This document shows positions 23,361-61,676 of a DNA stretch of 64,000 bases, one piece after another. The number at the start of each line of letters is the position of its first letter. Position 1 is the stretch's first letter. A program made the translations under genes and the position numbers. The notes beneath the pieces were generated by a model. The model had not been told where the DNA came from and ran no database searches. It was given only the letters and a program-made list of their open reading frames with translations. Source of the DNA: Chloroflexota bacterium (GTDB lineage: Bacteria > Chloroflexota > Dehalococcoidia > JACQUA01); the NCBI GenBank assembly GCA_016210565.1, contig JACQUA010000300.1, positions 264-64,263 of the forward strand, given 5' to 3'.

Positions 23361-24237
23361 CGGCTACGTTAGCCCATCCGAGGCATGAGCCATGTGGCTG
23401 CTTTGCCTTGCCCCGCCCGCACCCCGGAGGGCGGGTCCGGCGTATCTGCGAATGAACATGATCTTGCTTTCTGCAGGGGATGGGGAAAAGCATATCACAA
23501 CCGAGCTGCCCGTATCAATTTGATGGTCGTTAACATTGTCATTGTGAACCCCGATTTCGTCATCCTGATGGCAATCGTCCCGATGGAATCGGGACTCGCA
23601 AAGACAGTTCGTTTTCATCTTTGATGGTACGGCCTCGTCGGGATGGGTGATTGCCTTGCATGCCGCCCCGGAAAGATATACACTGTATGGAGTTATGGGC
23701 GCAAGCGCAATGGCACTGGGTGCTTGACCCGCGTCATTGAAAACCTCTTGCCCGCGGCCTAGACTCAAAAAGCCAGTCCCTCCACTCGGAAAAGACGCAA
23801 ACCAACGTAGGGGAGCGAACGCAGGGCCACCGGGCCTGTGGGAGCCTGGCGTGCCCTGGGGTGAAAGTGTCCCTTTTTTCGTTGTCGCGAGAATAAGGCA
23901 TCGGGCTGTCACCCTGAGCCGGAGCCCGAAGCGGAGCGAAGGGGCAGGCGAAGGGTCTTCACGCCCTCGAGGCAAGACGGGGCAAATGGTTCTTCGACTG
24001 TCCCGATTCTGTCCCGACTCGTCGGGATGCGTCGGGACGCTCGCCGCAAGAATGACAGGCGGCGTAGCTGTTTTCATACTTCATGGTGCGTTACCCCGCT
24101 GTGCGAGAGTCCGCTCGGTTCCGACCCCGATGCATCGGGGCATCGGGGCGACAGGTCGGGACAAGGCGGACCGGCGCATGGAGGAATTTTCTGCAAATCG
24201 CCAGGGTAATCGGGCTAACCGGGGAAGCAAACTGAGC

Positions 24238-34544: not shown

Positions 34545-34978
34545 GGTGGGTTAAGCACAGCGGGGTGGTAGGGATGCGGCGCGCTGTGCGAACCCACCAC
34601 GAAGACAAGATCCCAAGTTCCAAACACCAAATTCCAAACAATCCCCCATGCCCGCTTGCAGCGGGCACCATGAAGGATGAACATGTCATTCTGAGCGAAG
34701 CGAGCGCAGCGGGCGTAGTCGAAGAATCTTTCGGGGCGGGGAAGCAAAGACCCTTCGCCTGCACCTTCGCTTTGCTCAGGGCTTCGGCTCAGGGTGACAT
34801 TTTCAGAGCAATATCAAAACCCCAACCGGCGAAACCCCAAAAGGGTTGGCCGCCAATTTGTTTATATTGAGACTTGAACCATCGGGGGTTTGTTTGGAAT
34901 TTGGAACTTGGTTTTTGGAATTTGCTTAGAATGGTGGGTTCGCGCCCCGATGCAATCGGGGCGGTTAACCCACCCTAC
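34541..34978. mobile_element. ~438-bp nested palindromic composite element between convergent genes
   Basis: Outer GTAGGGTGGGTTAA heads sit at both ends: plus strand at 34541, minus strand at 34978. Inside are CCAAA-rich and TTTGG-rich arms (34605-34645 / 34890-34925). The inner GTCATTCTGAGCGAAGCG...CTCAGGGTGACAT element spans 34684-34800. Confidence 0.75.
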
Positions 34979-36395: not shown

Positions 36396-36855
36396 GTAGG
36401 GGTGGGTTAAGCATCCCGATGGTATCGGGACGCTTAACCCACCAGGCCAAAGGAGGAAATTCCTAATCCGAAGTACCAAGTACCAAACAAAGCTCAAATT
36501 CGAATGTTCAAACGCCAAAGAGCGTTGACCGCCGCTTTTGACATTGAGACTTGAATAATTGGAATTTGCTCAGAAAATAGGCTGTCACCCTGAGCGAAGT
36601 CGAAGGGTCTTTCGTCCCGCGCCCCGCCCCGAAAGAACTTGTCCTGAGCAGAGCGAAGGATTCTTCGACTATCCCGATTCTATCGGGACTGCGCTCGCTT
36701 CGCTCAGAATGACATTTTCATCCTTCATGGTGCGCCATCGGCGCATGGGTGATTGTTTGGAATTTGGAACCTGGTTATTGGAATTTGCTTAGAATGGTGG
36801 GTTCGCGCAGCCACCCGGCACAACCCTGCGTCCGTCTGTGCTTAACTCACCCTAC
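36396..36855. mobile_element. second copy of the nested palindromic composite element
   Basis: GTAGGGGTGGGTTAAGC is at 36396 and GCTTAACTCACCCTAC ends at 36855. The inner GTCACCCTGAGCGAAG...CTCAGAATGACAT element spans 36584-36715. It lies in a divergent intergenic region. Confidence 0.7.
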
Positions 36856-39249: not shown

Positions 39250-39257
39250 AGTTGGCT

Positions 39258-39415
39258 GTCATTCTGAGCGTAAGCGAAGAATCCTTCGGGGTGGAGCGCC
39301 GGGCAAAAGACCCTTCGACTTCGCTCAGGGTGACAATGTCATTGAAAGCGTAAGCGAAGAATCCTTCGGGGTGGAGCGCCAGGCAAAAGACCCTTCGACA
39401 GGCTCAGGGTGACAA
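39258..39415 (+). repeat. two tandem ~78-bp copies of the GTCATTCTGAGCG...CTCAGGGTGACA element
   Basis: Copies span 39258-39336 and 39338-39415. The second ends 1 nt before the response-regulator ATG. Confidence 0.85.
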
Positions 39416-43377: not shown

Positions 43378-44265
43378 ATGCCCGTGCGGGTCATGGTTGC
43401 CTGTCTGCTCGCGCTCCAGTTCATTTCCGCGGCCATCCCGGTCTCCGGCCTGGCCGGCGCCGACAACAGCGCGGTGGTGAATATCGTAGTGATGGAAGCG
43501 GTCGGGGTGGGCGATTTTCGCGGAACGAGGTTCCCGGCGCGCCCCGCGGGAGAAGCAGCCGGTGCGCCGCAGGCACCCCTGTCTGTCCCCCCTTCTCCGG
43601 CGTCAGCGAGCAAGCCGGCCCTAGCAACAGAGCAGCCGGGGACTCAGGCGGAGCCGCAGCCCGTCGGTGAACGCGTAGCCGTGGCCGATTCCTCCTCAGT
43701 TTTGCCGTCCGTTCCGGTCACCCTGAACGAGGCCGTTTCCGTCTGGGACTTGCCGCGCGCGCTTCTGCCGGTGCCGGTGACGGTCAACGAGGCTGTGGGC
43801 GTGGCGGACCTCCCGAGCGCCCTGCTGCCGGTCCCCGTGACGGTCAATGAGGCCGTGGGCGTGGCAGACCTCCCGAGATCCCTGCTGCTGGTCCCCGTGA
43901 CGGTGAATGAGGCTGTCGGCGTGTCGGACTTGCCGCGCGCCCTGGCGCCGGTCCCCGTGACGGTGAATGAGGCTGTCGGCGTGTCGGACTTGCCGCGCGC
44001 CCTGGCGCCGGTTCCTGTGATGGTCAATGAAGCGATCTCGGTGGCGGACCTGCCGGGCGCCCTGGTGGTCATACCGCCGCCGTTTTCGGGCGACGCCAAC
44101 AAGGACGGCAGGGTGGACGGCGCAGATCTGGCGCTGGTCCTGGCATCGTTCAACAGGCGCAGGGGAGCCCCAGGCTTCGATGCCAATGCCGACTTCAATG
44201 GCGATGGGATTGTGGATGTGTACGACCTGGCGGCGGTGGGGGTGAATTTCGTCCGGACGCCGTAG
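43378..44265 (+). CDS. secreted protein with six 20-aa tandem repeats and a C-terminal dockerin
   Basis: It has a signal peptide, the repeat VPVTVNEAVGV(A/S)DLPRAL(L/A)P x6, and dockerin DANKDGRVDGAD / [12 protein letters not shown]. Confidence 0.75.
   Translation: MPVRVMVACLLALQFISAAIPVSGLAGADNSAVVNIVVMEAVGVGDFRGTRFPARPAGEAAGAPQAPLSVPPSPASASKPALATEQPGTQAEPQPVGERVAVADSSSVLPSVPVTLNEAVSVWDLPRALLPVPVTVNEAVGVADLPSALLPVPVTVNEAVGVADLPRSLLLVPVTVNEAVGVSDLPRALAPVPVTVNEAVGVSDLPRALAPVPVMVNEAISVADLPGALVVIPPPFSGDANKDGRVDGADLALVLASFNRRRGAPGFDANADFNGDGIVDVYDLAAVGVNFVRTP
43711..44070 (+). repeat. six in-frame 60-bp tandem repeats (coding)
   Basis: Copies 4 and 5 look identical by eye. The period is 60 nt, equal to 20 aa. 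Confidence 0.9.
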
Positions 44266-44652
44266 GTAATGCCGCGCCGGGTACCACAGGCCTCCGTGCC
44301 TGTGCGCCGTGAACCAGACCGTTGTCAATATATCTTTGTCGTTGACCTTTACCCCCAGGCGCCCCGCATCGGGCCCTTGTCGATCGTCAGGATAACATAT
44401 ATCTGCCGTGTCCAAAATCCAGCTCTCACAGGCACGGAGGCCTGTGGTACCGGGTGGTGGGTTGGCACAGCCGCCCAGACTCCTCGTCGCCCCGGTGCGC
44501 TTGACCCACCCTACGGTGCTGGAATCCCATCGCCCCCTCCCGGGGATGGTGGGTTACGCTCGTGGTCCGGAGGTCCGCCGGGTTGTACTTCTTATCAACG
44601 TGTGTCAGGCCAACCAGGGCGTGGCGTGTCGGCTCGCTTCACCTACCCTACG
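44190..44652 (+). repeat. second copy of the ~470-bp duplicated segment
   Basis: It is collinear with 41925-42392. Its terminal CACCTACCCTACGG supplies the TAG stop of the convergent lyase gene (44650-44648). Confidence 0.75.
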
Positions 44653-47896: not shown

Positions 47897-48251
47897 ACGG
47901 TAGCACGTCTGTTGCCAATTGCCAAGTCCCCAGCCGTCCGGCCATCGTGGGCGTAGGGTGGGTGAAGCGCGCATGGCCAAACACGGGGAGAGAATCGTCG
48001 CTGTTGCGCGCGGAACCCACCGGTTGCCATGTCCCCCTCCGCGGAATGGTGGGTTGCGCTCGCGACTGGCGGAGATTCTGGCGCGTCCGCCTTATCGACG
48101 GATGCCCGGCCAACCAGGGTATGGAGTGTCGGTTCGCTTCACCCACCCTACGTGGCTTAACCCACTCTACGTGTCTCGCGGATGTCCAGGCAACCGGGGG
48201 ATTGCTTCGTCCCGACGAAATCGGGACTCGCAATGAAAGGCTATGTCCCTT

Positions 48252-49394
48252 CTATCTCATGAGGTGCCCGAAAATCTGGACGGCCACCTCTTGAAAAGCC
48301 TGCTTCTTCAAAGCATTCTGTTTGTCCATGGTGTTGAAGTATTTGCCGCCTTCCTGCCGGATCGACTCCGGTTCGAGGAAATCAGTCGGGACGTCCAGCC
48401 GGGCGCTCTGGCCGCCGATTACCCTGGAAATCAGCGTCCCGCCCTCCCGCGACAAGGCCCAGTTGATAAACACTTTTGCCGCATTGGGGTGCGGCGGCCG
48501 GTCGAAGAAGCCAACGCCTCCTGCGCCCGAACTGAGCGAGGTCCCTTCTATTGGAAGTACCAGCTTGATGGGCGCGCCCAGTTTCACGAATTCGATCTTG
48601 TTTTCTCGCCGCCCGCCCAGTCCGACCGGGTATTTGCCCTGCGCCACCCATTCCACCTGCTGGCGCGCATCATTGGTGATGATGGGTTCCTGGGCCGCCA
48701 GGGCGACGATAAAATCGCGCCCGACGATGACTTCGGAAGCGTGATAGAGCCAGTCAAGCCCTCCCCCGGTCCTGGGGTTGAACAGGACTATCTTTCCTTT
48801 CCATTTGGGCTCCAGGAAGTTCTTGTAGCTTCTGACCTCCTCGGGCTTGACCATGTTGGTGTTTATGAATATCGGGGGCGTCGGAGAGGCCAGAATGCCG
48901 GCCCAGGTGTGGCCCTCGTCGATGAACAGCATTTTGCCGCCCCACCAGACCTTCGTGTCGAGTACTTCGGGCAGGATCAGCGCATTGTCCAGGGATTGCA
49001 GCACCTTCTGTTCGCCCAGATCGACTCCGCTGACCCCGGAAAAATACACGTCGGCGTTATACAGACCCGCCCGGCGTTCCCTCATGATCCGTTCCTCCAG
49101 TTGAACGTTGGGCGCCGCCACCCATTCCAGAGCGATGCCGTATTTCTCACGGATTTCCTTAGTAATCGGGTCGCGGACCGCCGGGCCGGAACTGGAATAC
49201 AGCATGGCTTCGCCCTCTTTCTTCGCCGCCGCCACCACCCGTTCCCACTCGGTCAGGGAACCGCCCGTTGCAGCCGCAGGAGCCTGCCCGGCGGCGCCCG
49301 CCGCCGGCGGCGCGGACGGGGCCGGGGCGCAGGCGGCGATGACCAACCCCAGTCCAACGACCAGGGCAACGAAACTGTACGCTATTCTGTTCAT
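48252..49394 (-). CDS. ABC-type solute-binding lipoprotein (paralog 3)
   Basis: MNRIAYSFVALVVGLGLVIAAC, with PHPNAAKVFINWALSREG. No transporter partners are present. Confidence 0.75.
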   Translation of the reverse strand: MNRIAYSFVALVVGLGLVIAACAPAPSAPPAAGAAGQAPAAATGGSLTEWERVVAAAKKEGEAMLYSSSGPAVRDPITKEIREKYGIALEWVAAPNVQLEERIMRERRAGLYNADVYFSGVSGVDLGEQKVLQSLDNALILPEVLDTKVWWGGKMLFIDEGHTWAGILASPTPPIFINTNMVKPEEVRSYKNFLEPKWKGKIVLFNPRTGGGLDWLYHASEVIVGRDFIVALAAQEPIITNDARQQVEWVAQGKYPVGLGGRRENKIEFVKLGAPIKLVLPIEGTSLSSGAGGVGFFDRPPHPNAAKVFINWALSREGGTLISRVIGGQSARLDVPTDFLEPESIRQEGGKYFNTMDKQNALKKQAFQEVAVQIFGHLMR

Positions 49395-49442: not shown

Positions 49443-49849
49443 GGGTGGTTGCGCGAACCCACCAACAACCGAAATTCCAAATCCCAAGCACGAAATCCCA
49501 AACAATCAACCCATGCGCTGGCGGCGCACCATGAACAATGAAAATGGCACTGTCACCTGTCATTCTGAGCGAAGCGAGCGTAGTGAGCGTAGTCGAAGAA
49601 TCCTTCGCTCTGCTCAGGACAAGTTCTTTCGGGGTGGGCGCGAGCTGAAAGACCCTTCGACTTCGCTCAGGGTGACATTTTCTGAACAATATCAAAATCC
49701 AATGGCCAATGCCAAAACGGGTTCCCTCGGTTTGTTCACATGGAATTTGGTCATTTGATCTTGTTTGTGATCTGGAACTTGGTTATTGGAATTTGCTTCG
49801 AGCCCTGGTGGGTTCGTCCCGATGGTAATCGGGACTTAACCCACCCTAC
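49443..49849. mobile_element. third copy of the nested composite element (left head degenerate)
   Basis: CCAAA arms lie at 49470-49510 and TTTGG arms at 49735-49795. The inner GTCATTCTGAGCG...GGGTGACAT element spans 49559-49678. The right head is GGTGGGTTCGTCCCGATGGTAATCGGGACTTAACCCACCCTAC. Confidence 0.7.
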
Positions 49850-49930
49850 CTGTCTCCCGGACGTCCATGCAACCGGGGGATTGCTTCGTCCCGACGAAAT
49901 CGGGACTCGCAATGACGGCCTATACCCCTT

Positions 49931-51073
49931 CTATCTCATCAGGTGTCCGAAGATTTCGAGGGCCACCGCCTGAAAAGCCTGCTGGTCCAGGGTATGCTGT
50001 TTGTCCATGGTGTTGAAGTATTTTCCTCCCTCCTGGCGCTTGGCCTCCGGTTCGAGGAAATCGGTCGGCACATCGAGCCGGGCGCTCTGGCCGCCGATGA
50101 CCCTGGAAATCAGGGTGCCGCCCTCCCTCGACAGGGCCCAGTTGACGAATACCCTGGCCGCGTTGGGGTGCGGCGCCCTGTCGAAGAAGCCAACGCCCCC
50201 CGCGCCCGAGCTGAGCGTGGCGCCCTCCACCGGCACGATGAGCTTGATGGGCGCTCCCAGTCTCACGAACTCGATCTTGTTCTCCCTGCGCCCGCCCATT
50301 CCCACCGGGTATTTGCCCTGGGCCACCCACTCCACCTGCTGGCGCGCGTCGTTGGTGATGATGGGCTCCTGGGCGGCAATGGCTTTGAGATAATCGCGCC
50401 CCATGATAACCTCGGAAACATTATACACCCAGTCGAGACCTCCGCCGGTGCGGGGGTTAAACAGCACTATCTTGCCTTTCCACCGGGGCTCGAGGAAGTT
50501 CTTGTAGCTTCTGACCTCATCGGGGTTGACCATGTTGGTGTTGATGAATACCGGAGGCGTCGGGGAAGCCAGGATTCCGGCCCAGGTGTGGTCCTCATCG
50601 ATGAACAGCAGGTCCCCGTTCCACCAGACCTTCTTGTCCAGTACCTCGGGCAGGATCAGTATGTCGTCCAGGGGTTTCAGGACGCTTCGTCCCCCGAGAC
50701 CGATGCCGCTGGCCCCGGAGAAATAGACATCGGCCTGGTACAGGCCCGCCCGGCGCTCCCTCGTAATCCTTTCTTCCAGTTGAGCGTTCGTCGCCGCCAC
50801 CCACTCCAGCTCGATCCCGAATTTCTCACGAATTTGCTTCGTGATCGGGTCGCGGACCGCGGGCCCGGAGCTGGAATACATTATGGCCTCGCCCTCTTTC
50901 TTGGCCTCGGCTACCACCCGGTCCCACTCCGCCAGGGGATCGCTCTTGACGGCAGCGGAAGGTTGTTTGGGGGCCGGGGTCGCCGGCGGCGCGGACGGGG
51001 CCGGGCCGCAGGCGGCCACTATCAGCCCGAGTGCGAGGACCAGGCCAACCAAACTGTACACCATTCTGTTCAT
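49931..51073 (-). CDS. ABC-type solute-binding lipoprotein (paralog 4, tandem to paralog 3)
   Basis: MNRMVYSLVGLVLALGLIVAAC. It is collinear with 48252-49394. Confidence 0.75.
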   Translation of the reverse strand: MNRMVYSLVGLVLALGLIVAACGPAPSAPPATPAPKQPSAAVKSDPLAEWDRVVAEAKKEGEAIMYSSSGPAVRDPITKQIREKFGIELEWVAATNAQLEERITRERRAGLYQADVYFSGASGIGLGGRSVLKPLDDILILPEVLDKKVWWNGDLLFIDEDHTWAGILASPTPPVFINTNMVNPDEVRSYKNFLEPRWKGKIVLFNPRTGGGLDWVYNVSEVIMGRDYLKAIAAQEPIITNDARQQVEWVAQGKYPVGMGGRRENKIEFVRLGAPIKLIVPVEGATLSSGAGGVGFFDRAPHPNAARVFVNWALSREGGTLISRVIGGQSARLDVPTDFLEPEAKRQEGGKYFNTMDKQHTLDQQAFQAVALEIFGHLMR

Positions 51074-51318: not shown

Positions 51319-53925
51319 TCAGGAAACCACCCCGTTAGCAATAAGCTGATCTACCTCTGCTTCGGACAGGCCCAGTATCTGGGTCAGGACCAGGTCGTTG
51401 TGCTCGCCGAGCAGCGGGGCGTGACGCCATTTCAACGGAGGCGCCGCCGACAACTTGAAACCCCAATCTTCATTCAGTTCCTTACCGGCCTCGGGGTGGT
51501 CCACCGTAATCCAGTGATTGCGGGCTTTCAACTGGGGGTCGCGATTGAGCAGGTCCTCGACGTTCTCGACCACTCCGGCGGCGACCCCGGCTTCCTGCAT
51601 GAGTTTCATGACTTCCCAGTCAGTCCTCCCCTGTGTCCAGGCGTTGACAATCTCGTCCAGCTCGTCCTGGTTTTTGAGCCTGTCCTGGAGCGAGGCAAAT
51701 CTGGCGTCTGCGGTGAGGCTGGCTTTCCCGGTGACCCGGCAGAAAGACCGCCATTCTTCTTCGGTAAAAACGGCGATGGCGCACCACCGGTCTTTCCCCT
51801 GGCAACGATAGACCCCGTGAGGGGCGGCGTAGTCCAGGCGGTTGCCGGCGGGTCCCCGGAACTTGCCGTTGACGAGATACTCGAAAATGAGTGTCTCCAT
51901 GAAGCAGAGGGTAGACTCGTACTGGCAGAGTTCGACATGCTGCCCCTGGCCTGTGATGGCCCTGTGGTAAAGAGCCGATAGCGCGCCTATCAGGGCGTGG
52001 AACGGCTGGCTGCTGGTGTCGGGATAGGAATGGGGGTTGGCCCTGATGGGGGTCTTGGCCGGGAACCGGCTGGCGTAGTCCAGGCCGCACATGGCCATGA
52101 GGTTCCAGCTCAGGGTGCGGTAGTCCCGGTAAGGCCCCTCCGTCCCGAAGGCGGGCATGGTGACAAAGATGATGTCCGGTTTGATCTTCCGGAGCGCTTC
52201 GTAGGAAAAGCCCCACCGGTCCAGAACCCCGGGCACGAAGTTGCTGATCACCACGTCGGCCCGGGCAATGAGCCGCCGGGCGATATTCATGGCCCCGGGT
52301 TTCTTCATGTCCAGGGTAACCGACAGCTTGTTGGTATTGAACTTGTTGAAATGGTTGCCCTGGTTCAGACTGGTGAGGTCCTTCGCCCCGGCGCCGGGAT
52401 GCCTGCTGCTGGAGCCGGCACGGGCCTGTTCTTCGTTTTCCACGCTGATCACCTGGGCGCCGAAGTCGGCGAAGGCCTTCCCCACCATGGGACCGGCGAC
52501 GTGCCCGGTGAATTCGACGACCCTGAGCCCCTCAAAGGGAAGCCGGCCTGTTTGCGTTCCGGCGGTCTGGGGAATGTCACCCTGAGCCGGAGCCCTGAGC
52601 GAAGCGAAGGGGTAGGCGAAGGGTCTTTCGTCTCGGTCCGTGCGGCCAATGTCACCCGGACCCCCGACTTGATCGGAGTCGAAGGGTCTTTGTCCTCCAC
52701 CCCCTGGAAGGATTCTTCGACTACGCTCGCTCCGCTCGCTTCGCTCAGAATGACAGAGGAGAATCTCGTCGTTGTGCTCGCCGAGGCGCGGCGCCGGACG
52801 GGAGATTCGCAAGGGTGTTTCCGAAAGTCTGACAGGGGCGCCCGGATATTGCAGGGTAAGTCCCAGTTGCGGATGCCCCACGGGAACAAAGAAACCGCGG
52901 CCCTTCAACTGGACGTCGTTGGCGATATCCTCCGGCGTGTTCACGGCCCCGATGACCACTCCCCTATCCTGCCCGCGGCGGAAAAGCTCGTTCTTGATGT
53001 TCCTGGCGAAGAAGGCGGTGAGGACTTCATTGACGTGCTCTATCGCCTCCGGCCGGGTGCGGTAGAACGGGTCTTCCCACTTCTCCTCTTTCAATTCGGC
53101 GGCGGCGTTCTCCGATTCCAGCCACTTGACAAACCGCTCCCACCAGGAGACGGCTGAAAGCTGGGCGATGTCAAGGAAGCCGTCCTGGCAGGGGAAGATG
53201 CCCTGGGCGGCCAGACGGCGTTCATCCCCTTCCCTGCCCCGGATGTTGCCGGTCTTTCCGTAGGCCGGAACGGTAATCTGCATGCCGACCGTCGCGGACT
53301 GCTGCAGCGACACGTCCACGTGCTGGCCCTGTCCGGTCTTCAGCCTCTGGTAGAGGGCCATGATGGTACCGGCTGCGGCCTGCGCCGATCCCAGGTTGTG
53401 TCCCTGGGCCCCGGCCATCCGCACCGGAGGCAACCCCGGCCAGCCGCACTCGAACAGCAGCCCGCTGGCGGCCAGGGCGACGATGTCCGAGGACTTGTAG
53501 TCCTTCCACGGCCCGGTCTGCCCGAAGCCGGTGATGGAGGTCATTATGAGGCCCGGGTTCAGAATCTTCAGCACTCCGTAACCCAGGCCCAGCCGGTCGA
53601 GATAACCGGGCTGGAAGGTCTCGACCAGCACGTCCGATTGCCAGACGAGCTCCTTGAGGGTCGCCTGCCCGCCGGCCGATTCAATATCCAGCGTAACGCC
53701 GCGCTTGCCGGCGTTGAAAAGGAAGAAATACAGGCTCTTCTCGGGGTCCGGCTCGTCGTGAAGGAAGGGGCCGACATTCCTGGTCGGATCGCCGCTTGGG
53801 GGCTCCACTTTGATCACGTCGGCGCCCAGGTCGGCGAGGAGCCTGGTGCAATAGGCGCCCTTCTGGTCGGCCAGGTCCAGCACCCTGATTCCGCAAAGGC
53901 AACCCTCTGGTGTGACTTCTTTCAT
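51319..53925 (-). CDS. tandem double family-III (CaiB/BaiF) CoA-transferase in one reading frame
   Basis: Domain 1 starts GIRVLDLADQKGAYCTRLLADLGADVIKVEPP. Domain 2 starts GLRVVEFTGHVAGPMVGKAFADFGAQVISVE. Each ends near GEHND. They are joined by ~60 aa encoded by a repeat element. I chose the start MKEVTPEG at 53925. Confidence 0.75.
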   Translation of the reverse strand: MKEVTPEGCLCGIRVLDLADQKGAYCTRLLADLGADVIKVEPPSGDPTRNVGPFLHDEPDPEKSLYFFLFNAGKRGVTLDIESAGGQATLKELVWQSDVLVETFQPGYLDRLGLGYGVLKILNPGLIMTSITGFGQTGPWKDYKSSDIVALAASGLLFECGWPGLPPVRMAGAQGHNLGSAQAAAGTIMALYQRLKTGQGQHVDVSLQQSATVGMQITVPAYGKTGNIRGREGDERRLAAQGIFPCQDGFLDIAQLSAVSWWERFVKWLESENAAAELKEEKWEDPFYRTRPEAIEHVNEVLTAFFARNIKNELFRRGQDRGVVIGAVNTPEDIANDVQLKGRGFFVPVGHPQLGLTLQYPGAPVRLSETPLRISRPAPRLGEHNDEILLCHSERSERSERSRRILPGGGGQRPFDSDQVGGPGDIGRTDRDERPFAYPFASLRAPAQGDIPQTAGTQTGRLPFEGLRVVEFTGHVAGPMVGKAFADFGAQVISVENEEQARAGSSSRHPGAGAKDLTSLNQGNHFNKFNTNKLSVTLDMKKPGAMNIARRLIARADVVISNFVPGVLDRWGFSYEALRKIKPDIIFVTMPAFGTEGPYRDYRTLSWNLMAMCGLDYASRFPAKTPIRANPHSYPDTSSQPFHALIGALSALYHRAITGQGQHVELCQYESTLCFMETLIFEYLVNGKFRGPAGNRLDYAAPHGVYRCQGKDRWCAIAVFTEEEWRSFCRVTGKASLTADARFASLQDRLKNQDELDEIVNAWTQGRTDWEVMKLMQEAGVAAGVVENVEDLLNRDPQLKARNHWITVDHPEAGKELNEDWGFKLSAAPPLKWRHAPLLGEHNDLVLTQILGLSEAEVDQLIANGVVS
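52576..52754 (-). repeat. GTCATTCTGAGCG...GGGTGAC element(s) embedded in-frame in the CoA-transferase ORF
   Basis: It translates as CHSERSERSERSRRIL...APAQGDI. This is the same element family as 34684, 36584, 39258 and 49559. Confidence 0.85.
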
Positions 53926-54164
53926 GTCTTGATATTCTGTAGGGGCGCGGTCTTCGCGCCCGTGTCGCGCGGTCTGCCCGCCGCCCCGGCGAGGGGACCT
54001 CGCCGCTACGCCCGGCATCGCTGAATGGTGACGTTCTCTGAGCAACTGGCCATGTCATTTGCGACGCTCACCACGAAGGATGAAAATGACGGCGCAGGCA
54101 CGGAGGCCCGCGCCACCCGGCTATTTTCAGACTAATGCAAGAATGAACTGCCACAGTGCCGGGC

Positions 54165-54276
54165 GATCGTCACTGGCAGTTGATAGTATCACATTCCCTG
54201 TTCAGCCAGCAACCCAAATGAATAATCACGAAACCTGTCCCCGAGCAGCCGGGGATTCGAATGACGAATGACCGGC
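54165..54276 (+). repeat. left copy of a ~110-bp direct repeat flanking the Fic cassette
   Basis: The core is TTGATAGTATCACATTCCCTGTTCAGCCAGCAACCCAAATGAATAAT...GGGGATTCGAATGACGAATGACC. The partner lies at 56135-56251. Confidence 0.8.
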
Positions 54277-54643
54277 TAAGTTCAAATGTTCCAGTGTTCA
54301 GGAAGGGTGGACCTTTCCCTTCATTGTTACATGAGCGTTGTTGCGAAGGGCCTTTCACCCGCCCGCCAGGTCCGGGTTCCGGGATTTCTTTTTCAGGGCA
54401 GCCGGTTATCGCTGCTCTTGTCTCAAATTTTTGGGTCATGCCCTCTCCTCGCAATGAACAAAAGTCAGGAATGTGTGATTCCACCTGCTCCGTGTGCGTG
54501 GATGAGGCGACACCCAGCCCTCCAAAAGGGCCAGGTGTTGCGCCGCAGCCACAGTCGGTTGTAAAATGGCCGTGTCAAAAGGACCTGGTTTCGGCTCAGT
54601 GGTCAGGAAAAAGAGACTCTCCAATATCCTGCCGTTCTTTTAG

Positions 54644-54814
54644 TGGTCGCCAGGCCGCTATATCGGCCTGCCCGAAGATGAGGATGATTTCGACTTCGCC
54701 GAGCGGTTCAGCAAGCTAAAGGCGGAGCTTGACGAGCAGATGAAAGAGGAAGCGCGGCTGAATGAGCTTATCCGGCGGAATCTGTCCCGTATTTCGACTT
54801 CGCTCAATGCATGA
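54644..54814 (+). pseudogene. C-terminal remnant of a type I restriction-modification methylase subunit (HsdM-like)
   Basis: The frame opens after the TAG at 54641. It reads WSPGRYIGLPEDEDDFDFAERFSKLKAELDEQMKEEARLNELIRRNL. This resembles the conserved HsdM tail (PGRYVG, an acidic stretch, a coiled helix). No upstream methylase body exists. Confidence 0.5.
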
Positions 54815-54838
54815 TTAGACATTAAACAATAACCTGGC

Positions 54839-54907
54839 AAAGTATAATAAAGAAACCTATATTAAACTGTAAAGCAATAAAGTATAATAAAGAAAACCAT
54901 ATTAAAG
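54839..54907 (+). promoter_or_regulatory. two 28-bp AT-rich direct repeats, each containing TATAAT, upstream of fic
   Basis: AAAGTATAATAAAGAAA(C/A)C(T/C)ATATTAAA occurs at 54839-54866 and 54879-54907, a 40-nt period. The second ends 13 nt before the fic GTG. No good -35 is seen. Confidence 0.35.
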
Positions 54908-54919
54908 GGAAACTGACCG

Positions 54920-56053
54920 GTGGATATCTCAGATTATAAGGCAGGGACATGGCGGAAAGGCTACCAGTATCAGTACTTCCTGCCGGAAAAGATTAACCAT
55001 TCGTTTGTCTGGACAGACGAAGGCATCAATGAACTTCTGGAAACAGCTTCTTTAAGGCTTGGGGAACTGAACTCCTTTTCAAGGTTTGTTCCCGACCCGG
55101 ATATGTTCATCAAAATGCACGTCTTCAAGGAGGCGGTCACCTCAAGCCGGATTGAAGGAACGCGTACCAATATTGAAGAAGCCATCGTCGAGGAGAAAGA
55201 AGTTAACCCCGAAAAGCGGGATGACTGGCGCGAAGTGAATAACTACGTTACGGCAATGAATACTGCCATCGAAGAACTAAAGACTCTGCCACTTTCCAAC
55301 CGGCTGATCAGGAATACTCATAAAATCCTGCTTTCGAGCGGACGCGGGGAACGCAAAAATCCGGGAGAATTCAGGGAATCGCAGAACTGGATTGGCGGCG
55401 CCAGCCTGGCGGACGCAGTGTTCATTCCGCCGGCGAATACAGAGCTGCCGGAACTGTTAGCAGACCTTGAAGAATTCCTGCATAATACGGAAATCAAGAT
55501 TCCGCATTTGATTCGCATTGCCATTGCCCATTACCAGTTTGAAACCATCCATCCTTTTCTTGATGGTAACGGCAGAATAGGGCGTTTGCTGGTTACCCTG
55601 TATCTGGTGAGCGCCGGTGTTTTAGAGAAACCATTGCTCTATCTGTCTGAGTTTTTTGAGAAGAATAAGACCCTGTACTACGATAACCTGGAACTGGTCA
55701 GGACAAAAAACGATATTGGACAATGGCTTAAATTCTTTTTGACCGGGGTTATCCAGACCGCGGAAAACGGGGTATCCACCCTGGTTAAAATTACTGACTT
55801 GAAGGCAACCATCGAGAGGGAGAAGATTCTAACGATGGGTAAACGAGCCAAACAGGGCGCGGTTTTTCTGCATGCGCTCTTTTCCAAGCCGGTAGTGACC
55901 ATCAAGGATGTTCAGAACGTCACCGGGGTTTCCTACCCGGCCGCTAACCACCTGGTACAGGCTTTCCTGACAGCCGCTATTCTCCAGGAGACGACCGGCT
56001 ACCAGCGCAACCGCGTTTTCAGCTTTGAAGAGTATTTGAGGTTGTTCCGATGA
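54920..56053 (+). CDS. class II Fic-family protein (AMPylase-type) with N-terminal inhibitory helix and C-terminal wHTH
   Basis: The Fic motif is HPFLDGNGRIGR. An intramolecular alpha-inh-like motif TSSRIEG ([ST]xxxE[GN]) lies upstream. It uses a GTG start. Confidence 0.85.
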   Translation: MDISDYKAGTWRKGYQYQYFLPEKINHSFVWTDEGINELLETASLRLGELNSFSRFVPDPDMFIKMHVFKEAVTSSRIEGTRTNIEEAIVEEKEVNPEKRDDWREVNNYVTAMNTAIEELKTLPLSNRLIRNTHKILLSSGRGERKNPGEFRESQNWIGGASLADAVFIPPANTELPELLADLEEFLHNTEIKIPHLIRIAIAHYQFETIHPFLDGNGRIGRLLVTLYLVSAGVLEKPLLYLSEFFEKNKTLYYDNLELVRTKNDIGQWLKFFLTGVIQTAENGVSTLVKITDLKATIEREKILTMGKRAKQGAVFLHALFSKPVVTIKDVQNVTGVSYPAANHLVQAFLTAAILQETTGYQRNRVFSFEEYLRLFR

Positions 56054-56134
56054 TGTACAATGGCAATCGGCGGGGGTGGAAGTATGCAAGCTGGGGGAAC
56101 ATGTTTCTATAAACTCACGCAGCGTAGATAGGGA

Positions 56135-56251
56135 TTATCGTTACCGGCACTTGATAGTAGCACATTCCCTGTTCAGCCGGCAACCCGAATGAAGAATGGC
56201 GATACCCGTCCCTCCCCGCGCCGGCGGGGATTCGAATGAGGAATGACCAGC
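56135..56251 (+). repeat. right copy of the ~110-bp direct repeat flanking the Fic cassette
   Basis: TTGATAGTAGCACATTCCCTGTTCAGCCGGCAACCCGAATGAAGAAT...GGGGATTCGAATGAGGAATGACC. Confidence 0.8.
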
Positions 56252-56414
56252 CAAGCATCTGCGCCCCAACAACATAACCCCTTGAACCGTAGCCGCCAAA
56301 GGTGTATAACTAGGGGTGTCAACAGCACTTCGTTTATATTCAGACACGACGACAGCCCTCTGGCGGTTTGTGAAAAAGAGCACAGCACACACAGAAGTGA
56401 AATCTAATGATCAC

Positions 56415-56789
56415 ATGGCGGCCGCTGGTCTGTCGCGAGCCGACAGCACATTGTTGGTGAGCGACGGGGATTCGAAAAAGGCAGCCGCGATTGACCGGCC
56501 AGGTTGGCGGCACCCGGGAGGCAAGCTGAGAGAAGCCGGCGCCGAGACCCTTTCGGACGCCGAGTTGCTGTCCATCATCGTATCCACCGGCATAAGGGGT
56601 AAGCCCGCAGAAAAAATAGCCGAAGAGATACTGGCCAAGTTCGGTTCGTTCAGGGGAATGGCAAATCAGCCTATGGAGAGGTTCATGGAAATCAAAGGAC
56701 TGGCCGATGTTAAGGTGATACGGATTGCTGCTGCCTTCGAGATTGCCAGGAGGATAGTGAAAGAGGTTCTTGAAGCCAATGAAGGATAA
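56415..56789 (+). pseudogene. radC: radC 5' fragment (HhH N-terminal domain only; JAB domain missing)
   Basis: LSDAELLSIIVSTGIRGKPAEKIAEEILAKFGSFRGMANQPMERFMEIKGLADVKVIRIAAAFEIARRI matches the RadC N-terminal region. The ORF stops where the JAB/MPN domain should begin, and it overlaps the next gene. Confidence 0.6.
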
Positions 56790-59700
56790 GACCAAGGTGT
56801 CTTCCAAGGCGAAGATTCCGAGCCCCTTCGAGGCAGTTGGCCATAAGACAGAATGGACTGCCACGGCCATCCTCATGCACTGGATGAGGGGCATTATTCA
56901 GAAGCGAAGCCTTGCCCTGGGCATGCCCGATGTTGAAACAATTGGAGCCGACAAGAAGAAACCGGATCTGGTTATCTACGAGTCCCCGTCAAGTGATAAG
57001 GTCCTCTGCCTTATCGAAGCAAAACCGCCCTATTATGACGTCTTTAGCGAAGAAGAACTCAAGGAACCCGCCAGGGAAAAGGCTAGCAAGAGGAAGGCGA
57101 AGTACTTCGCCCTCACCAACTTCAAGAGACTTGTCTGGTTCAGCACCGAGAAGGTCAATTCGATGCTGCCTGAAGAGGAACAAATCGTCGACAAGTACAA
57201 CCTTTCCGCCATTGAGGATCTCAATGATATCGAACAGACGAAGTACAGCGATCCCATAAAGAAGGGCCTTGAGGATTTTCTGTTAGATTTGCACGCCATC
57301 CATGCGGGGAAGAAAGCCGAACCTAAACACGCCATAGACGAGTTCCTGGTCTACAGGCTTCAGGAAAAGATATCTGTTCTTTCCGGCTATTACCGAAAGC
57401 TCATCGAGGGCAAGACCCACAGCGACCCCGCTTTTGCCAGGAAACTGTCCAGGTGGTTCGTGGACCAGGGCTGGAGCTTTGCCTGGCAGGCCTCGGACTT
57501 CGGCAAAGCCGCAAGGCAGACCGCCTATCTTTTGACAAACAAAATCCTCTTCTACAACCTTTTGCAGGCGAAGAGGCCTCGCGAACTCGACCCGCTTGAG
57601 GTCCCCGAGGGGCTAACCAAAGCTGAAGTGCTTCAGAAGACGCTTGAGGGGTATTTCGGCCAGATCCTGAAGATTGACTACGAGACCATCTACACCACGG
57701 ATTTCATAGACGCCGTCGCTTTCCCTGACTCGATAGATGTCGTCAAGGAGATAAGGGAGCTTGTCCGTGTCCTGAGAAAATATGACTTCTCCAAACTTGG
57801 CTATGACGTCATTGGCAGAATCTTCGAACGGCTCATTCCTGCCGACGAGCGGCACAACCTCGGACAGTATTTCACCAGCCCCGATGTAGTGGACCTGATC
57901 CTGAAGTTTTGCGTTCAGCACGAGGACGACAAGGTACTCGACCCGGCCTGCGGGGCCGGCACCTTCCTGGTCAGAGCCTATCAGCACAAGCGGCTGATGA
58001 ACCAGAAGAAGAGCCACGAAGCCATCCTGGAGACCTTGTGGGGGAACGACATCGCCAAGTTCCCTGCCCATCTAGCCACCATTAACCTTGCCATCAATGA
58101 CCTCGGCGTGGACAAGAACTATCCGAATGTGCTTCAGGAAGACTTCTTCGCTCTGCTGGTGGGAGAAGGAGGTTTTGATCCCGAGAAGTGGCGCAAGGTC
58201 AGGGCGAGGACTCTCGGTCTCAAAGAACGGGAACTGACCTGCCCCCGGTGGTTCGACGCGATAGTGGGCAATCCACCCTACACGCGCCAGGAAGAAATCG
58301 CAGAAATATCACCGGAGGACGTCGAGTACAAAGAGAAACTGATAGAGAAAGCCCTGCTGGACCTGAAGGGCAAGAAGATTGCCGAGATTGGGAGACGGGC
58401 AGGCATCCATGTCTACTTCTTTGTTCACGGCATAAAGTTTCTGAAAGAGGGCGGATACTTCGGCTTCATCGTCTCCGACCCCTGGCTCGATGTGGACTAC
58501 GGCAAGGGACTCCAGGAGTTCTTCCTGAACAATTACAAGATAATTGCCGTCATCGGGTCTAAGGTCGAGCGCTGGTTCGAAGAAGCGGACACCAACACCT
58601 GTATCGTCATCCTGCACAGGTGCAAAGACAAGAAGCAGCGGTATGAAAACCGAGTGCGGTTTGTCTATCTTAAGAAACCCCTGAGGCATTTCATACCCCC
58701 CGCCCAGGACATGTGGGAGAAGCAGGTCAAGCGGCTAGAGGCTATCGGTGACCTCAAGAAGACCATCCTGTTCCACAATGACCTGTATGAAAACGATGAC
58801 CTGAGGATATTTCCCAGGACCCAGAAAGAACTCTGGCAAGAGGGATTCGATCCGGAAGAGAAGAAATACGTCGGGGCCAAATGGGGAAAATACCTGAGGG
58901 CGCCGGCCATCTTCTTTACCATTCTGGACAAGGGGAAGGGCAAGCTTGTGCCGTTGAGGCAAGTGGCGAAAGTCCACCGCGGCTTCACCTCGGGTGCCGA
59001 CCCGTGGTTCTATGTAGAAGACATTGGAGAATCCCTGGGGGCGGGTGGTGTTAAACAGATTGCGGCTAAGATTGGCTATCACGGAGATACCAAGAGTCTG
59101 AGACCTGTCAAGAGCGGCGACGACACGAAATGGTTGCTGGAAGGACAGTACTTGCACCCAGTCATACGGAATCCAGATGAATATGGATGCATTGTCATAG
59201 ACGTAAAATTGGTAAAAGACCGTGTTGTGTTTATTGGAGATGCAGACGTTAAGGGAAAGTTTGTCGAGAAGTATGTTTTGCATGGGCAAACAAAGGCCTA
59301 CCAAATGGGCAAGGGCAGAAAATCGATACCGTCCGAGACTGGAACGTGCTCCTCGAGGCCCCACTGGTATCAGCTTCCGGACGTTAAGCCGTCGAGGCTG
59401 CTATGGCAAAAGGCGTTTGATATTAGTCACAGGCACTACCTCGCCAGTGAACCCGTTCTCGCTAACCAGCGGTTCTACCCAATCTATCCGAATTCTGACG
59501 ACGACACAGAGGTGACCGCAGCTTTTCTGAATTCGGCGCTTGTGGCACTAAACCTCGAATTCCAGAGAGCGGCGATGGGCCTGGGGGCAATCGAGGCCAC
59601 CGTTGAGGAGGTTAGGCAAATCCTGGTTGTGAACCCCAAAGTAGTAGCGGCGTCCACACGGGACAAGCTGTCCAAGGAACTGGCGAAGCTTGGCAAACGA

Positions 59701-59985
59701 GAAGTCGGATCGGTTTTCGAAGAATTTGGCGCCCCTTCTCCCGAAGACGTATCCCTTGACAAGGTGAAGCCAGATCGCCGTGAACTGGACAGGATCATCA
59801 TGGGCGAGGTCCTTGGCCTGACTGATGAAGAACAGATGGAGGTCTACCGGGCAGTCGTAGATTTGGTTAAGTCCAGGGTCGACAAGGCGCAAACTTTCGG
59901 TAAGAAGATGAGATCCCCGGAAGGGATTGACGTGGACGCTCTTAAGAAGGTAGTGTTGGACAGTCTCAGAGAGGAAGAGGAGTAA
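56779..59985 (+). CDS. MmeI-like (type IIL/IIG) fused restriction endonuclease - N6-adenine DNA methyltransferase - specificity protein
   Basis: The N-terminal PD-(D/E)xK-like motif is PDLVIY...CLIEAKPP...YFALTNFKRLVWF. Methyltransferase motif I is VLDPACGAGTFLV and motif IV is VGNPPYTR. The C-terminal ~450 aa resembles a TRD. The ATG is at 56779; the track uses the TTG at 56770. Confidence 0.7.
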   Translation: MKDKTKVSSKAKIPSPFEAVGHKTEWTATAILMHWMRGIIQKRSLALGMPDVETIGADKKKPDLVIYESPSSDKVLCLIEAKPPYYDVFSEEELKEPAREKASKRKAKYFALTNFKRLVWFSTEKVNSMLPEEEQIVDKYNLSAIEDLNDIEQTKYSDPIKKGLEDFLLDLHAIHAGKKAEPKHAIDEFLVYRLQEKISVLSGYYRKLIEGKTHSDPAFARKLSRWFVDQGWSFAWQASDFGKAARQTAYLLTNKILFYNLLQAKRPRELDPLEVPEGLTKAEVLQKTLEGYFGQILKIDYETIYTTDFIDAVAFPDSIDVVKEIRELVRVLRKYDFSKLGYDVIGRIFERLIPADERHNLGQYFTSPDVVDLILKFCVQHEDDKVLDPACGAGTFLVRAYQHKRLMNQKKSHEAILETLWGNDIAKFPAHLATINLAINDLGVDKNYPNVLQEDFFALLVGEGGFDPEKWRKVRARTLGLKERELTCPRWFDAIVGNPPYTRQEEIAEISPEDVEYKEKLIEKALLDLKGKKIAEIGRRAGIHVYFFVHGIKFLKEGGYFGFIVSDPWLDVDYGKGLQEFFLNNYKIIAVIGSKVERWFEEADTNTCIVILHRCKDKKQRYENRVRFVYLKKPLRHFIPPAQDMWEKQVKRLEAIGDLKKTILFHNDLYENDDLRIFPRTQKELWQEGFDPEEKKYVGAKWGKYLRAPAIFFTILDKGKGKLVPLRQVAKVHRGFTSGADPWFYVEDIGESLGAGGVKQIAAKIGYHGDTKSLRPVKSGDDTKWLLEGQYLHPVIRNPDEYGCIVIDVKLVKDRVVFIGDADVKGKFVEKYVLHGQTKAYQMGKGRKSIPSETGTCSSRPHWYQLPDVKPSRLLWQKAFDISHRHYLASEPVLANQRFYPIYPNSDDDTEVTAAFLNSALVALNLEFQRAAMGLGAIEATVEEVRQILVVNPKVVAASTRDKLSKELAKLGKREVGSVFEEFGAPSPEDVSLDKVKPDRRELDRIIMGEVLGLTDEEQMEVYRAVVDLVKSRVDKAQTFGKKMRSPEGIDVDALKKVVLDSLREEEE

Positions 59986-60401
59986 TGAGAACCATCGGCG
60001 AGTTCTACAAGGAAGAGATTCTGGCTAAAAAGGGCGTGGTCGTACGGGATCTTCCGAGCGGGGCGGGGGAGACCAGAATTGTGAGAGACCTGTTCGGCTG
60101 GAGGCTTTGCTCAGGCAAAGAATGTATTGAATGTCGTTCGGAGGAGGAGGCGCGATACCTCAAGATTTTCCTGGACGCCGGCGTGAGGGAGATTGGAGTA
60201 CCTGCGGATGACCAATTGCTGAAGGATATCCTGCCCAGGCTAGAGCGACTGAAATCCAGGACCTTCGCGATAATCGATTCCTACCTTGAAACGGTACTGA
60301 ACCGGAAGATCAGGGAGAGGGTAAGGCACGACGTTCTCGCGGAAATCACAAAGTTCCAGGATGACAGCCCGTCCGGGGAGACAGTGTCACCCACCCACTG
60401 A
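59985..60401 (+). CDS. hypothetical 138-aa protein translationally coupled to the RM gene
   Basis: Its ATG overlaps the RM stop as TAATG. It has one CxxC pair (CIEC) and I recognise no domain. Confidence 0.5.
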   Translation: MRTIGEFYKEEILAKKGVVVRDLPSGAGETRIVRDLFGWRLCSGKECIECRSEEEARYLKIFLDAGVREIGVPADDQLLKDILPRLERLKSRTFAIIDSYLETVLNRKIRERVRHDVLAEITKFQDDSPSGETVSPTH

Positions 60402-60540
60402 CACACAGACGCTCAACAACCTGAGCAGGGGCAATGCATACGGTCCTGTCCGTTTCAACCGAACAACCCGGCAATTAAGCCACCGCCTGCAGTTGAAATG
60501 CGGACGTTGTGCCACAGCTGGGGAACAACCATAGTTCCAG

Positions 60541-60918
60541 CCCGTGTTTCATGCCGGGTTCACTTCATTTCTGCTCAGTCTCCGCATCCGTGAAGTGTCC
60601 ACCATCCGCTTCTGGCAACGCTTTTCGTCATTTCGTGTGTTTGATAGCTGTCATTTGCTGCCATCAGGCTGGCCAGCTCTGAGATGTCATCGACATCCTC
60701 CAGCCGCCGGAGGATGTCGAGCAGGCGGTCCAACTTGTCCGGTTTTAGTACCGGGGAGACCACTTTTCTGAACTTGGCTTCTATTTCCCGCGGGGTGAAA
60801 GGGTTTTGCGGTTCTCCCTTGGCGGGTTGATCGTGGAACCGGGTGAACTCCCTGCCGTCCCTGGTCCTCACCGTAAGAACGCAGGGCCATTTGCCAGGGG
60901 AAAATTTGTCCAGTTCAG
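60541..60918 (-). pseudogene. duplicated 3' fragment (~85 codons plus 3' flank) of the MmgE/PrpD gene at 62596-63972
   Basis: ELDKFSPGKWPCVLTVRTRDGREFTRFHDQPAKGEPQNPFTPREIEAKFRKVVSPV... parallels the PrpD3 C-terminus. The nucleotide match to 62491-62866 is obvious by eye, with most positions identical. Confidence 0.85.
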
Positions 60919-60956
60919 AAATAACTAATACAAACGCACTAAATAATGAGCAATAG

Positions 60957-61072
60957 TCTCACACAAAGATACGAAGCGCACAAAGGGATCCTTGACAGGG
61001 GGCGTGGCAAAACAACACCATACTTATCTCAGTGTCTCCGTATTCTTTGTGCCTCTGTGTCTTTGTGTGAAA
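60957..61072. mobile_element. MITE-like CACAAAG-arm element (inverted relative to 51152-51263)
   Basis: The ends are TCTCACACAAAGATACGAAGCGCACAAAGG and CTCAGTGTCTCCGTATTCTTTGTGCCTCTGTGTCTTTGTGTGAAA. Confidence 0.6.
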
Positions 61073-61541
61073 CCGTATCCCCCGTCGCTGATACCGCGAT
61101 GCGACGTTTATTATTGCGTTTGTATTAATACCCAAGTGCACTATCTTCCAGTTGATAAATAACGGATTCGGTGTCTATGAGGCTCTACCACGCAGAAAAG
61201 CTTTTTTAGTTCTTCTTCATTATGTTCTGAAAAGAGGCGCAGAAGTTCTTTGTGAACCTCTCTGGTGGTCAGTGAATTTACCCACAGGAGCATTATGCCA
61301 GCCGCTTCTTGGAATTTAGGATGTATCAGAAAACCGCAAGGTACAGGTCACACCAAGAAGCATGGGATGCGAGCCACAGAGCGGGACAACAAGCCGCTAA
61401 GCAATTGGGCGATGGAGGCTTGTGCGGTTTGGCATGGATAATAGCTCCTCTGGAAGCGTGGGCAGGAATACGGTTTGCCGAGGCACACTTCGCCCGTGCT
61501 GACAAAGCGTGGACCGGCCTTCTATGGTGGGCTGGTCTGGT

Positions 61542-61571
61542 TTGCGTGCCATCAGCCCGCCATGCTACAAT
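61542..61571 (+). promoter_or_regulatory. candidate sigma70-like promoter for the 61677-62436 gene pair
   Basis: TTGCGT (61542-61547), an 18-nt spacer, then TACAAT (61566-61571). This lies ~105 nt upstream of the ATG at 61677. Confidence 0.35.
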
Positions 61572-61676
61572 GACAGCGTTGAGGTTCACAGGAATTGTGT
61601 TTGTCAACGTGGCAGGACGGGGACGACGGCCACCTGTGGTGATAGTAATTCAATCTGGGAGATCGCGGAGATAGAA

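Follow-up and report, generated by a model that had tools for sequence, protein, structure and literature searches.

The window analysed here, a stretch of 64,000 nucleotides (nt) from contig JACQUA010000300.1 of a Chloroflexota bacterium (assembly GCA_016210565.1), carries on its minus strand the gene for a family-III CoA-transferase in which two homologous halves are joined into a single chain, and a copy of a short palindromic repeat is read in frame within the linker between them. Counted from the first TTG, the open reading frame (ORF; 51319..54045) comprises 908 codons, while the ATG that matches the N-termini of homologous proteins in the alignment yields a product of 868 amino acids (aa). 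The Pfam profile PF02515 (CoA_transf_3) matches this ORF twice with an E-value of 1.6e-191, the second match extending from residue 465 to residue 843 and covering profile positions 2-366 of 366, and the presence of two complete CaiB/BaiF-type domains, as proposed in the initial annotation, is thereby confirmed. Identity between the halves is 31%, and they differ clearly at their C-termini. Half 1 ends in ...RLGEHNDEILL and is missing the terminal tail of approximately 20 residues that is present in half 2 (...LLGEHNDLVLTQILGLSEAEVDQLIANGVVS), a difference that had been pointed out before and is seen both in the sequence itself and in the alignments. The earlier observation that half 2 has no independent start likewise holds: no in-frame ATG, GTG or TTG occurs between residue 372 and residue 480, and the first such codon, Met480, is already situated within domain 2.

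The two halves are colinear with the two different subunits of benzylsuccinate CoA-transferase, BbsEF. Half 1 aligns with chain A of the structure 9fn0 (E-value 7.1e-76), residues 13-391 of the query corresponding to positions 8-389 of a chain of 410, while chain B aligns with half 2 (E-value 1.1e-71, residues 464-866 on 9-407 of 409). In structural comparisons with Foldseek, template modelling (TM) scores of 0.89-0.95 to the BbsEF subunits were obtained, and of 0.94-0.95 for half 2 with 9fn0_B/D. The title of PDB entry 9fol refers to a 'D178-CoA adduct', and by residue count on the 9fn0 alignment this D178 is located in chain B, where it is aligned with D636 of the query, a residue that is invariant in 114 of 114 sequences. 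On this basis Asp636 is the predicted catalytic residue, on which an Asp-CoA thioester or anhydride intermediate would be formed. Its equivalent in half 1 is L178, and Asp does not belong to the six residues most commonly found there in the family (H, L, M, A, Q and N). As the halves match different subunits and the Asp is found in half 2 alone, the protein is a single-chain pseudo-heterodimer with one catalytic half and not a fused homodimer. The initial annotation was thus right in seeing both halves of a family-III dimer in one chain; the obligate homodimer that it took as background is not the appropriate reference, as the relevant relatives are heteromeric.

A model calculated with AlphaFold2 (AF2) from the alignment of 114 sequences has a mean predicted local distance difference test (pLDDT) score of 91.6 and a predicted TM score (pTM) of 0.92, and pLDDT values below 50 are confined to residues 405-457, within the repeat-encoded stretch, and to residues 1-3. 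By homology the halves would interlock, and we infer an active enzyme whose chain forms an intramolecular pseudo-heterodimer. Databases label the fused family generically as 'CaiB/BaiF CoA transferase family protein', and no equivalog model of NCBIfam reaches its cut-off for the 868-aa protein. A literature search for a described fused family-III CoA-transferase returned nothing relevant, which is an absence from the searched literature and not a proof of novelty.

The linker contains 75 residues, and 61 of these are encoded by the repeat. As established by alignment of the copies and by frame analysis, the repeat copy spans positions 52755 down to 52573, is 183 nt long and begins on codon position 1. 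It had previously been placed at 52754-52576 and described as read in frame between the domains, and this was correct except that its limits are 1-3 nt wider. In the gene the element begins and ends with TGTCATTCTGAGCG...GCTCAGGGTGACA(TT) and is translated as CHSERSERSERSRRILPGGGG...APAQGDI; the predicted tryptic peptide of the linker is ILPGGGGQRPFDSDQVGGPGDIGR. One complete unit, degenerate at its 3' end, is joined in this composite copy to the 3' half of a second unit behind it. An open frame through the copy is unremarkable, as stop codons are absent from three of the six. It contains a perfect inverted repeat of 13 nt (52595-52607 and 52736-52748) and can fold as a long imperfect hairpin that pairs both ends, with a folding energy of -87 kcal/mol (z -2.35). 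A scan of the linker for terminators and promoters found none.

Among 5.8 billion proteins searched, 4360 matched at E<=1e-20, and the statements on homologs made here cover the best 120 of them. The 119 proteins other than the query are without exception fused, with lengths of 782-871 aa and identities of 37-64%, and nearly all cover 94-100% of the query. They originate mostly from metagenome-assembled genomes (MAGs) of Chloroflexota/Dehalococcoidia, with a few from Thermodesulfobacteriota or 'Deltaproteobacteria'. In alignments built with 16 and with 114 sequences both halves align end to end, and between them lies an unalignable linker whose length ranges from 20 to 78 residues in the 114 sequences, with a median of 31; that of the query is the second longest. 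P0002-P0011, with 43-64% identity the closest among the matches listed, are fused and tail-less, and their half 1 ends in GEHNxEI like that of the query. The linkers of the closest relatives, approximately 25-53 aa in length, show no similarity to the element (shuffle fractions of 0.46-0.83 for P0002, P0005, P0010 and P0085), and when a decayed copy was sought in the long linker of P0002, the nearest homolog, the similarity was no better than that of shuffled sequences. Fusion and tail loss therefore predate the insertion, and since tail, stop and start are already gone in these relatives, it was not the insertion that removed them. This runs counter to the initial annotation, which had the repeat delete the stop and start between tandem paralogs and so cause the fusion.

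The descent of the family from tandem paralogous genes, which had also been proposed, is borne out by seven two-gene junctions in metagenome loci (L009-L012, L016, L017 and L025). Here gene 1 has a full tail (...ELGLTEAELAALAGAGVI*), followed by a spacer of 15-40 nt with a GGAGG-type ribosome-binding site (RBS) and then by the ATG of gene 2. Unfused tandem-gene relatives thus exist as anticipated, but they are found in other lineages, while the closest listed homologs are all fused. The distant fused members P0084, P0107, P0085, P0119 and P0108 retain a complete tail ahead of the linker, and in an intermediate fused group the tail is decaying, for example to YEKELGISRQEL.... Two-gene relatives and tail-bearing fused members together identify the loss as older and stepwise. 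Note that at six of the seven junctions (L009, L010, L011, L016, L017 and L025) both genes are in the same frame, a single stop codon and a short spacer with an RBS lying between them, although the frequency of this arrangement is not meaningful, as the loci were chosen for frame continuity. At such a junction the loss of a single stop codon would yield a fusion. Read-through or recoding of the stop codon at the junctions was considered and rejected, since tail, RBS and ATG are normal at every one of them and the loci had been picked for continuity of frame.

Taken together, the gene very probably encodes an old fused BbsEF-like enzyme into whose linker the 183-nt repeat, of a type otherwise intergenic, was inserted later and in frame, lengthening the linker and not creating the fusion. 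The ancestor would have had two adjacent genes for different BbsEF-type subunits. Loss of the stop codon, the spacer and the start would then have produced a head-to-tail fusion of a non-catalytic half, a flexible linker and the catalytic half with Asp636, and the C-terminal tail of half 1 would have decayed after the fusion, long before the query lineage arose. Later, and in the query lineage alone, the composite repeat copy would have landed in the linker. The reading frame survived because the length of the insert is a multiple of three and one of the three stop-free frames is read, and the insert was tolerated because the 61 added residues fall into a segment that is predicted to be disordered and has no conserved sequence. 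The architecture and homology of the gene, the age of its fusion, the identity of the repeat and the intact frame are established; as for the insert, we infer neutrality and not selection, so that it would be carried along as a passenger. The idea of a MITE (miniature inverted-repeat transposable element) domesticated as coding sequence is accordingly upheld with respect to the repeat origin of the linker, but not with respect to domestication, since the data are explained by a passenger that the disordered linker tolerates.

The gene looks functional. Of 148 columns with a conservation of at least 90% in the other 113 sequences, the query has the consensus residue in 143; with 96.6% it holds rank 66 of 114, at a family median of 95.9%. 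The retention of conserved positions, the intact frame and the confident model disfavor a decaying pseudogene, and with it the recently inactivated locus that had been offered as an alternative, although very recent damage to the gene is conceivable.

The repeat itself is present in several copies. The window contains the 18-mer GTCATTCTGAGCGAAGCG four times, where shuffles predict 0.05 occurrences, and six copies of the element in 64 kb were defined by blastn and by alignment of the copies. Five of these six are intergenic, and only the linker copy is intragenic. The copies are short (80-183 nt), non-coding and have inverted-repeat ends, TGTCAnnnTGAGC and GCTCAnnnTGACA (TGTCA...TGACA), all of which agrees with a MITE. 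No target-site duplication was found in the flanks of the aligned copies, the limits of which have an uncertainty of 1-3 nt. A cognate transposase or RAYT (REP-associated tyrosine transposase, where REP denotes repetitive extragenic palindromic) was not identified, no systematic search of the window or the source genome having been made. Neither the element nor its intergenic copies matched an Rfam family, whether gathering or permissive thresholds were applied, and a search of the literature gave nothing relevant to the sequence of the element or to its peptides. The 65-aa linker peptide had no match among the 5.8 billion proteins, the source protein included; this result is uninformative, probably on account of low complexity. 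In a scan of genome contigs, the 5' 23-mer of the element, TGTCATTCTGAGCGAAGCGAGCG, was found to be identical in at least four loci, from MAGs of Clostridia, Vulcanimicrobiota, Acidobacteriaceae and Terriglobia. One of these, L004, shares approximately 44 nt with the element, the remainder not being common to it. As the 23-mer is found across phyla, this terminal module is a widespread motif and not that of a private MITE. The element is thus MITE/REP-like and placed in no named family.

Two of these occurrences of the element deserve mention. Between a histidine-kinase gene (36838-39249) and the gene of an OmpR-type response regulator (39417-40121, ATG at 39417) lies a spacer of 167 nt that is exactly filled by the tandem pair of copies at 39256-39414, so that the element is also found between co-oriented and probably co-transcribed genes. 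In ORF 23737-25737 an MtmB-like domain (PF05369) begins at residue 176, and the 175-residue N-terminal extension ahead of it contains a partial copy; the true start of this ORF is probably located much further downstream.

Other members of the fused family have repeats in their linkers as well. Those of P0033, P0031 and P0016 read ...PLPAGEGRGEG...LTPTLSQRERE..., and the DNA of locus L002, which encodes a linker of the PLPAGEGRGEG type, is a double palindrome, CCTCTCCC..GGGAGAGG and GGGGTGAGGG..CCCTCACCCC, different from the repeat in the query. The linker in L013 carries the CCTCTCCC..GGGAGAGG core, too, and in total this core was found three times in approximately 1.4 kb of linker DNA versus once in approximately 950 kb of other DNA that was retrieved. 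The linkers of P0048 (ARILRSASLAQNDR) and P0015 (ARILRFTQNNG) contain a GTCATTCTGAGCG-type motif in the opposite orientation, of which the linker DNA of P0015 is a decayed copy. As these two proteins are 78% identical and share the insertion, it has persisted through a divergence of approximately 22%. Linkers in the P0033 clade, at 84-92% identity, are entirely different and 26-52 aa long, and between two of its loci, L002 and L008, the flanking DNA is approximately 95% identical while the linker DNA (2600-2760 in L002) is unalignable. Short linkers of 18-30 aa contain no palindromes, and a recognizable repeat peptide is absent from 108 of the 114 family members. The simplest reading is that repeats land everywhere and survive only where the protein is unconstrained, and the linker is a site tolerant of repeats across the family.

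Several other explanations for the repeat-bearing gene have to be weighed against a late insertion into an old fusion. The element does sit exactly where the tail, the stop and the start would be expected, half 2 has no start codon and two-gene relatives exist in other lineages, all of which would fit a repeat that itself recently fused tandem paralogs, its insertion having removed the start of gene 2 together with the tail and the stop codon of gene 1. Nevertheless we regard such an event as barely credible, since every other listed homolog is fused, the closest ones are also tail-less and free of the element, and the tail-bearing fused members show that fusion preceded tail loss. It is very unlikely, too, that a short-read assembler threaded the repeat into the linker or mis-built the structure of one and a half units, the real linker being shorter. 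The window does stem from a contig of metagenomic origin (the longest one for P0001 measures 66,033 bp), short repeats abound in the genome and the linker copy is an unusual composite, but both flanks belong to one conserved gene in correct order and frame, the insert amounts to exactly 61 codons without a stop, for which a random mis-join has a chance of approximately 1 in 6, and the shared k-mers in both flanks that a chimeric join needs were not seen. A crippling insertion, by which the gene would be a young pseudogene or encode a poorly folding protein with further damage yet to accumulate, is a proposition that we consider improbable. Such a view could invoke the length of the linker, the hairpin that its mRNA segment can form and the restriction of the insertion to the query lineage. 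It is opposed by an intact frame of 868 codons, by conserved positions that are kept slightly above the family median, by the presence of the catalytic Asp, by homologs with linkers of 63-78 aa and by the confident packing of the halves in the AF2 model.

Alternatively, the linker, as a relic of the old intercistronic spacer, might be a preferred target for palindromic repeats, with the peptide selected as a longer flexible tether. At least 3-4 independent insertions of two element types have hit the same linker in different clades, the one shared by P0015 and P0048 has persisted, the same element fills the spacer between two co-oriented genes in the window, and the CCTCTCCC..GGGAGAGG core is enriched in linker DNA as detailed above. 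We nevertheless find this explanation doubtful, because purifying selection outside an unconstrained linker yields the same pattern without targeting or benefit, most family members show no recognizable repeat peptide, the fast turnover of linkers in the P0033 clade looks neutral, and five of the window's six copies lie between genes. That the linker insertions are truly targeted or beneficial is accordingly rather unlikely. In a broader and still tentative form, to which we would give slightly more room while not favoring it, the linker would be a recurrent landing pad for palindromic repeats, an ex-intercistronic spacer, in Chloroflexota and other phyla, with the peptides kept as working flexible tethers by a route similar to that of Rickettsia palindromic elements (RPEs) but outside Rickettsia. 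A late insertion into an old fusion remains the reading that we prefer, and the following points weigh against it. The 27-nt upstream junction, with which an empty-site allele was sought in metagenome contigs, had 0 matches there, and since neither such an allele nor a close strain was found, the nearest protein among those listed being 64% identical, the insertion event and any accompanying deletion cannot be reconstructed. The part of the linker not derived from the element is 14 residues long, below the family minimum of 20, probably due to loss of some of the original linker or a slight error in the boundaries. Finally, with a multi-copy repeat of approximately read length on a metagenome-assembled contig, the internal structure of the element could be mis-assembled.

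Table. Features of the CoA-transferase gene, copies of the repeat element and other repeats. Positions are those of the window, except for loci given with a locus handle.
Feature	Position	Strand	Evidence
Single-chain BbsEF-like family-III CoA-transferase gene	51319..53925 (stop codon 51319-51321)	-	ORF list, PF02515 twice, 119 fused homologs, AF2
Half 1, residues 1-388, non-catalytic subunit-like, without C-terminal tail, match to BbsEF chain A	52762..53925	-	9fn0_A alignment
Linker between the halves, residues 389-463, 75 aa	52537..52761	-	linker lengths of 114 homologs; pLDDT <50 for 405-457
Palindromic repeat copy, in frame, 183 nt, codons 391-451, composite	52573..52755	-	motif count, blastn, copy alignment, frame analysis, hairpin
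Half 2, residues 464-868, catalytic subunit-like, complete C-terminal tail, match to BbsEF chain B	51322..52536	-	9fn0_B alignment; Foldseek
Codon of Asp636, predicted catalytic Asp	52018..52020	-	aligned with D178 of 9fn0 chain B; invariant 114/114
Intergenic element copy between ORFs 33270-34268(-) and 34975-36288(-)	34684..34801	+	motif count, blastn, alignment
Intergenic element copy between 34975-36288(-) and histidine-kinase gene 36838-39249(+)	36583..36714	-	motif count, blastn, alignment
Two tandem short element copies between histidine-kinase and response-regulator genes	39256..39414	+	blastn, alignment; Pfam on neighbors
Intergenic element copy between two solute-binding-protein genes downstream of the CoA-transferase gene	49557..49679	+	motif count, blastn, alignment, Pfam
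Partial element copy, 3' half only, upstream of MtmB-like domain of ORF 23737-25737	23907..23959	-	blastn, 92% identity over 53 nt
Loci with the 5' 23-mer of the element, among the matches listed	L003:6138, L004:1336, L005:3737, L006:7257		genome contig scan
GGACAGGCAGGGACGCCTGTCC hairpin family	1242-1448, 3371-3405, 4020-4054, 6999-7033, 8356-8465, 22695-22729, 29027-29061		window repeats
Further intergenic repeat families	6925-6988, 34884-34945, 36747-36808, 42186-42357, 44449-44619, 48033-48119, 49755-49850		window repeats

The window contains other repeats besides this element. A second family, the hairpin GGACAGGCAGGGACGCCTGTCC, forms head-to-tail arrays with periods of 29 nt and 25 nt; the arrays do not resemble clustered regularly interspaced short palindromic repeats (CRISPR), as spacers are absent. 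Further intergenic repeats (GGTGGGTT...AACCCACC hairpins, TTGGAATTTGGAAC runs and CACAGGCACGGAGGCCTGTGG) often adjoin the GTCATTCTGAGCG element, forming composite intergenic repeat blocks.

According to Pfam, the neighbors of the CoA-transferase gene are two genes for solute-binding proteins (SBPs; SBP_bac_1) downstream of it, a heparinase-like gene and a Fic gene, and an operon or beta-oxidation context of the bbs type was not found in the window. In the homolog P0004, the fused gene adjoins an enoyl-CoA hydratase, pairs of thiolase/ChsH2-OB and many SBP genes, a context that appears beta-oxidation-like and reminiscent of bbs. Directly upstream of the CoA-transferase gene, at approximately 54000-62000, the G+C content is 0.50-0.53, versus approximately 0.60. 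This stretch carries a Fic/DOC gene (54920-56053) and a gene for a 1071-aa fusion with an MmeI/Eco57I-type restriction-modification methylase (56770-59985), and it may be an acquired island. Segmental duplications are found at 27078-28787 and 31988-33245, at 48151-48450 and 49830-50129, and at 41835-42357 and 44097-44619. Their content includes paralogous MmgE/PrpD, PGA_cap and solute-binding-protein genes, with three MmgE/PrpD genes in 64 kb; the tandem SBP genes are 86% identical, and the 3' regions of dockerin-protein genes are duplicated together with downstream repeats. In the dockerin-containing ORF 43375-44265, at least five tandem units of 60 nt at 43651-44067 encode a protein repeat of 20 aa.

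With the repeat recognized as a late passenger and not as the maker of the fusion, the first interpretation of the locus is corrected, and there is a general lesson for genome scans: homologs should be compared before a repeat within an ORF at a domain boundary is credited with creating an architecture. The family presents a natural series within one enzyme, from two genes via fused proteins with a tail, with a decaying tail and without one to a linker invaded by repeats. It points to a large uncharacterized family of single-chain family-III CoA-transferases with a single active site, which is possibly useful for folding studies of interlocked proteins, and also for annotators, who at present have generic labels. 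If the linker were indeed a landing pad for repeats, nature would have supplied hundreds of interlocked dimers in single-chain form for studies of topology and folding.

Among known enzymes, BbsEF is the best match for both halves in sequence as well as in structure. Like the query it combines two different paralogous family-III subunits, and the Asp of its CoA adduct resides in the subunit that corresponds to half 2. It consists, however, of two polypeptides of 410 and 409 aa, and is reportedly an alpha2beta2 enzyme, whereas the query is one chain from a single ORF of 868 codons without an internal start. The query further differs in its tail-less half 1, in an identity of only 35-37% and in having no bbs-type operon in the window. 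Frc/YfdW, CaiB, SUGCT and YfdE have PF02515 and the fold in common with the query (TM scores of 0.77-0.94), and Frc, YfdW, CaiB and SUGCT are among its PDB matches. The catalytic Asp of half 2 is found in the same motif, at the position of Asp169 in Frc and D178 in BbsEF. These enzymes are homodimers with two active sites, in contrast to the asymmetric single chain with one catalytic Asp described here.

With respect to the insert, REP and bacterial interspersed mosaic element (BIME) as well as MITE-type repeats resemble the element in their length of 80-183 nt, the absence of coding capacity, inverted-repeat ends, a hairpin and many intergenic and tandem copies; the identity of its 5' 23-mer in at least four MAGs of other phyla is unusual for a lineage-specific MITE. 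Palindromic repeats that are inserted in frame into genes are well documented, with RPEs, intragenic ERIC (enterobacterial repetitive intergenic consensus) and BOX elements and the MITEs of Anabaena as examples (PMC10969869). RPEs and intragenic MITEs share with the present case a short palindrome in frame that adds a peptide at a structurally permissive site and leaves the protein intact (PMC10969869), and here, too, the insertion lies within an intact gene, the inserted codons being free of stops and the downstream frame and conserved residues being kept. Within a single genome RPEs are found in numerous unrelated genes, and the peptide that they encode is conserved, while of the element described here one copy in six is intragenic in 64 kb, and its host is Chloroflexota-like and not Rickettsia. 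In-frame insertion of repeats being a known phenomenon, the gene adds an example from a different phylum, in an uncharacterized single-chain BbsEF-like enzyme.

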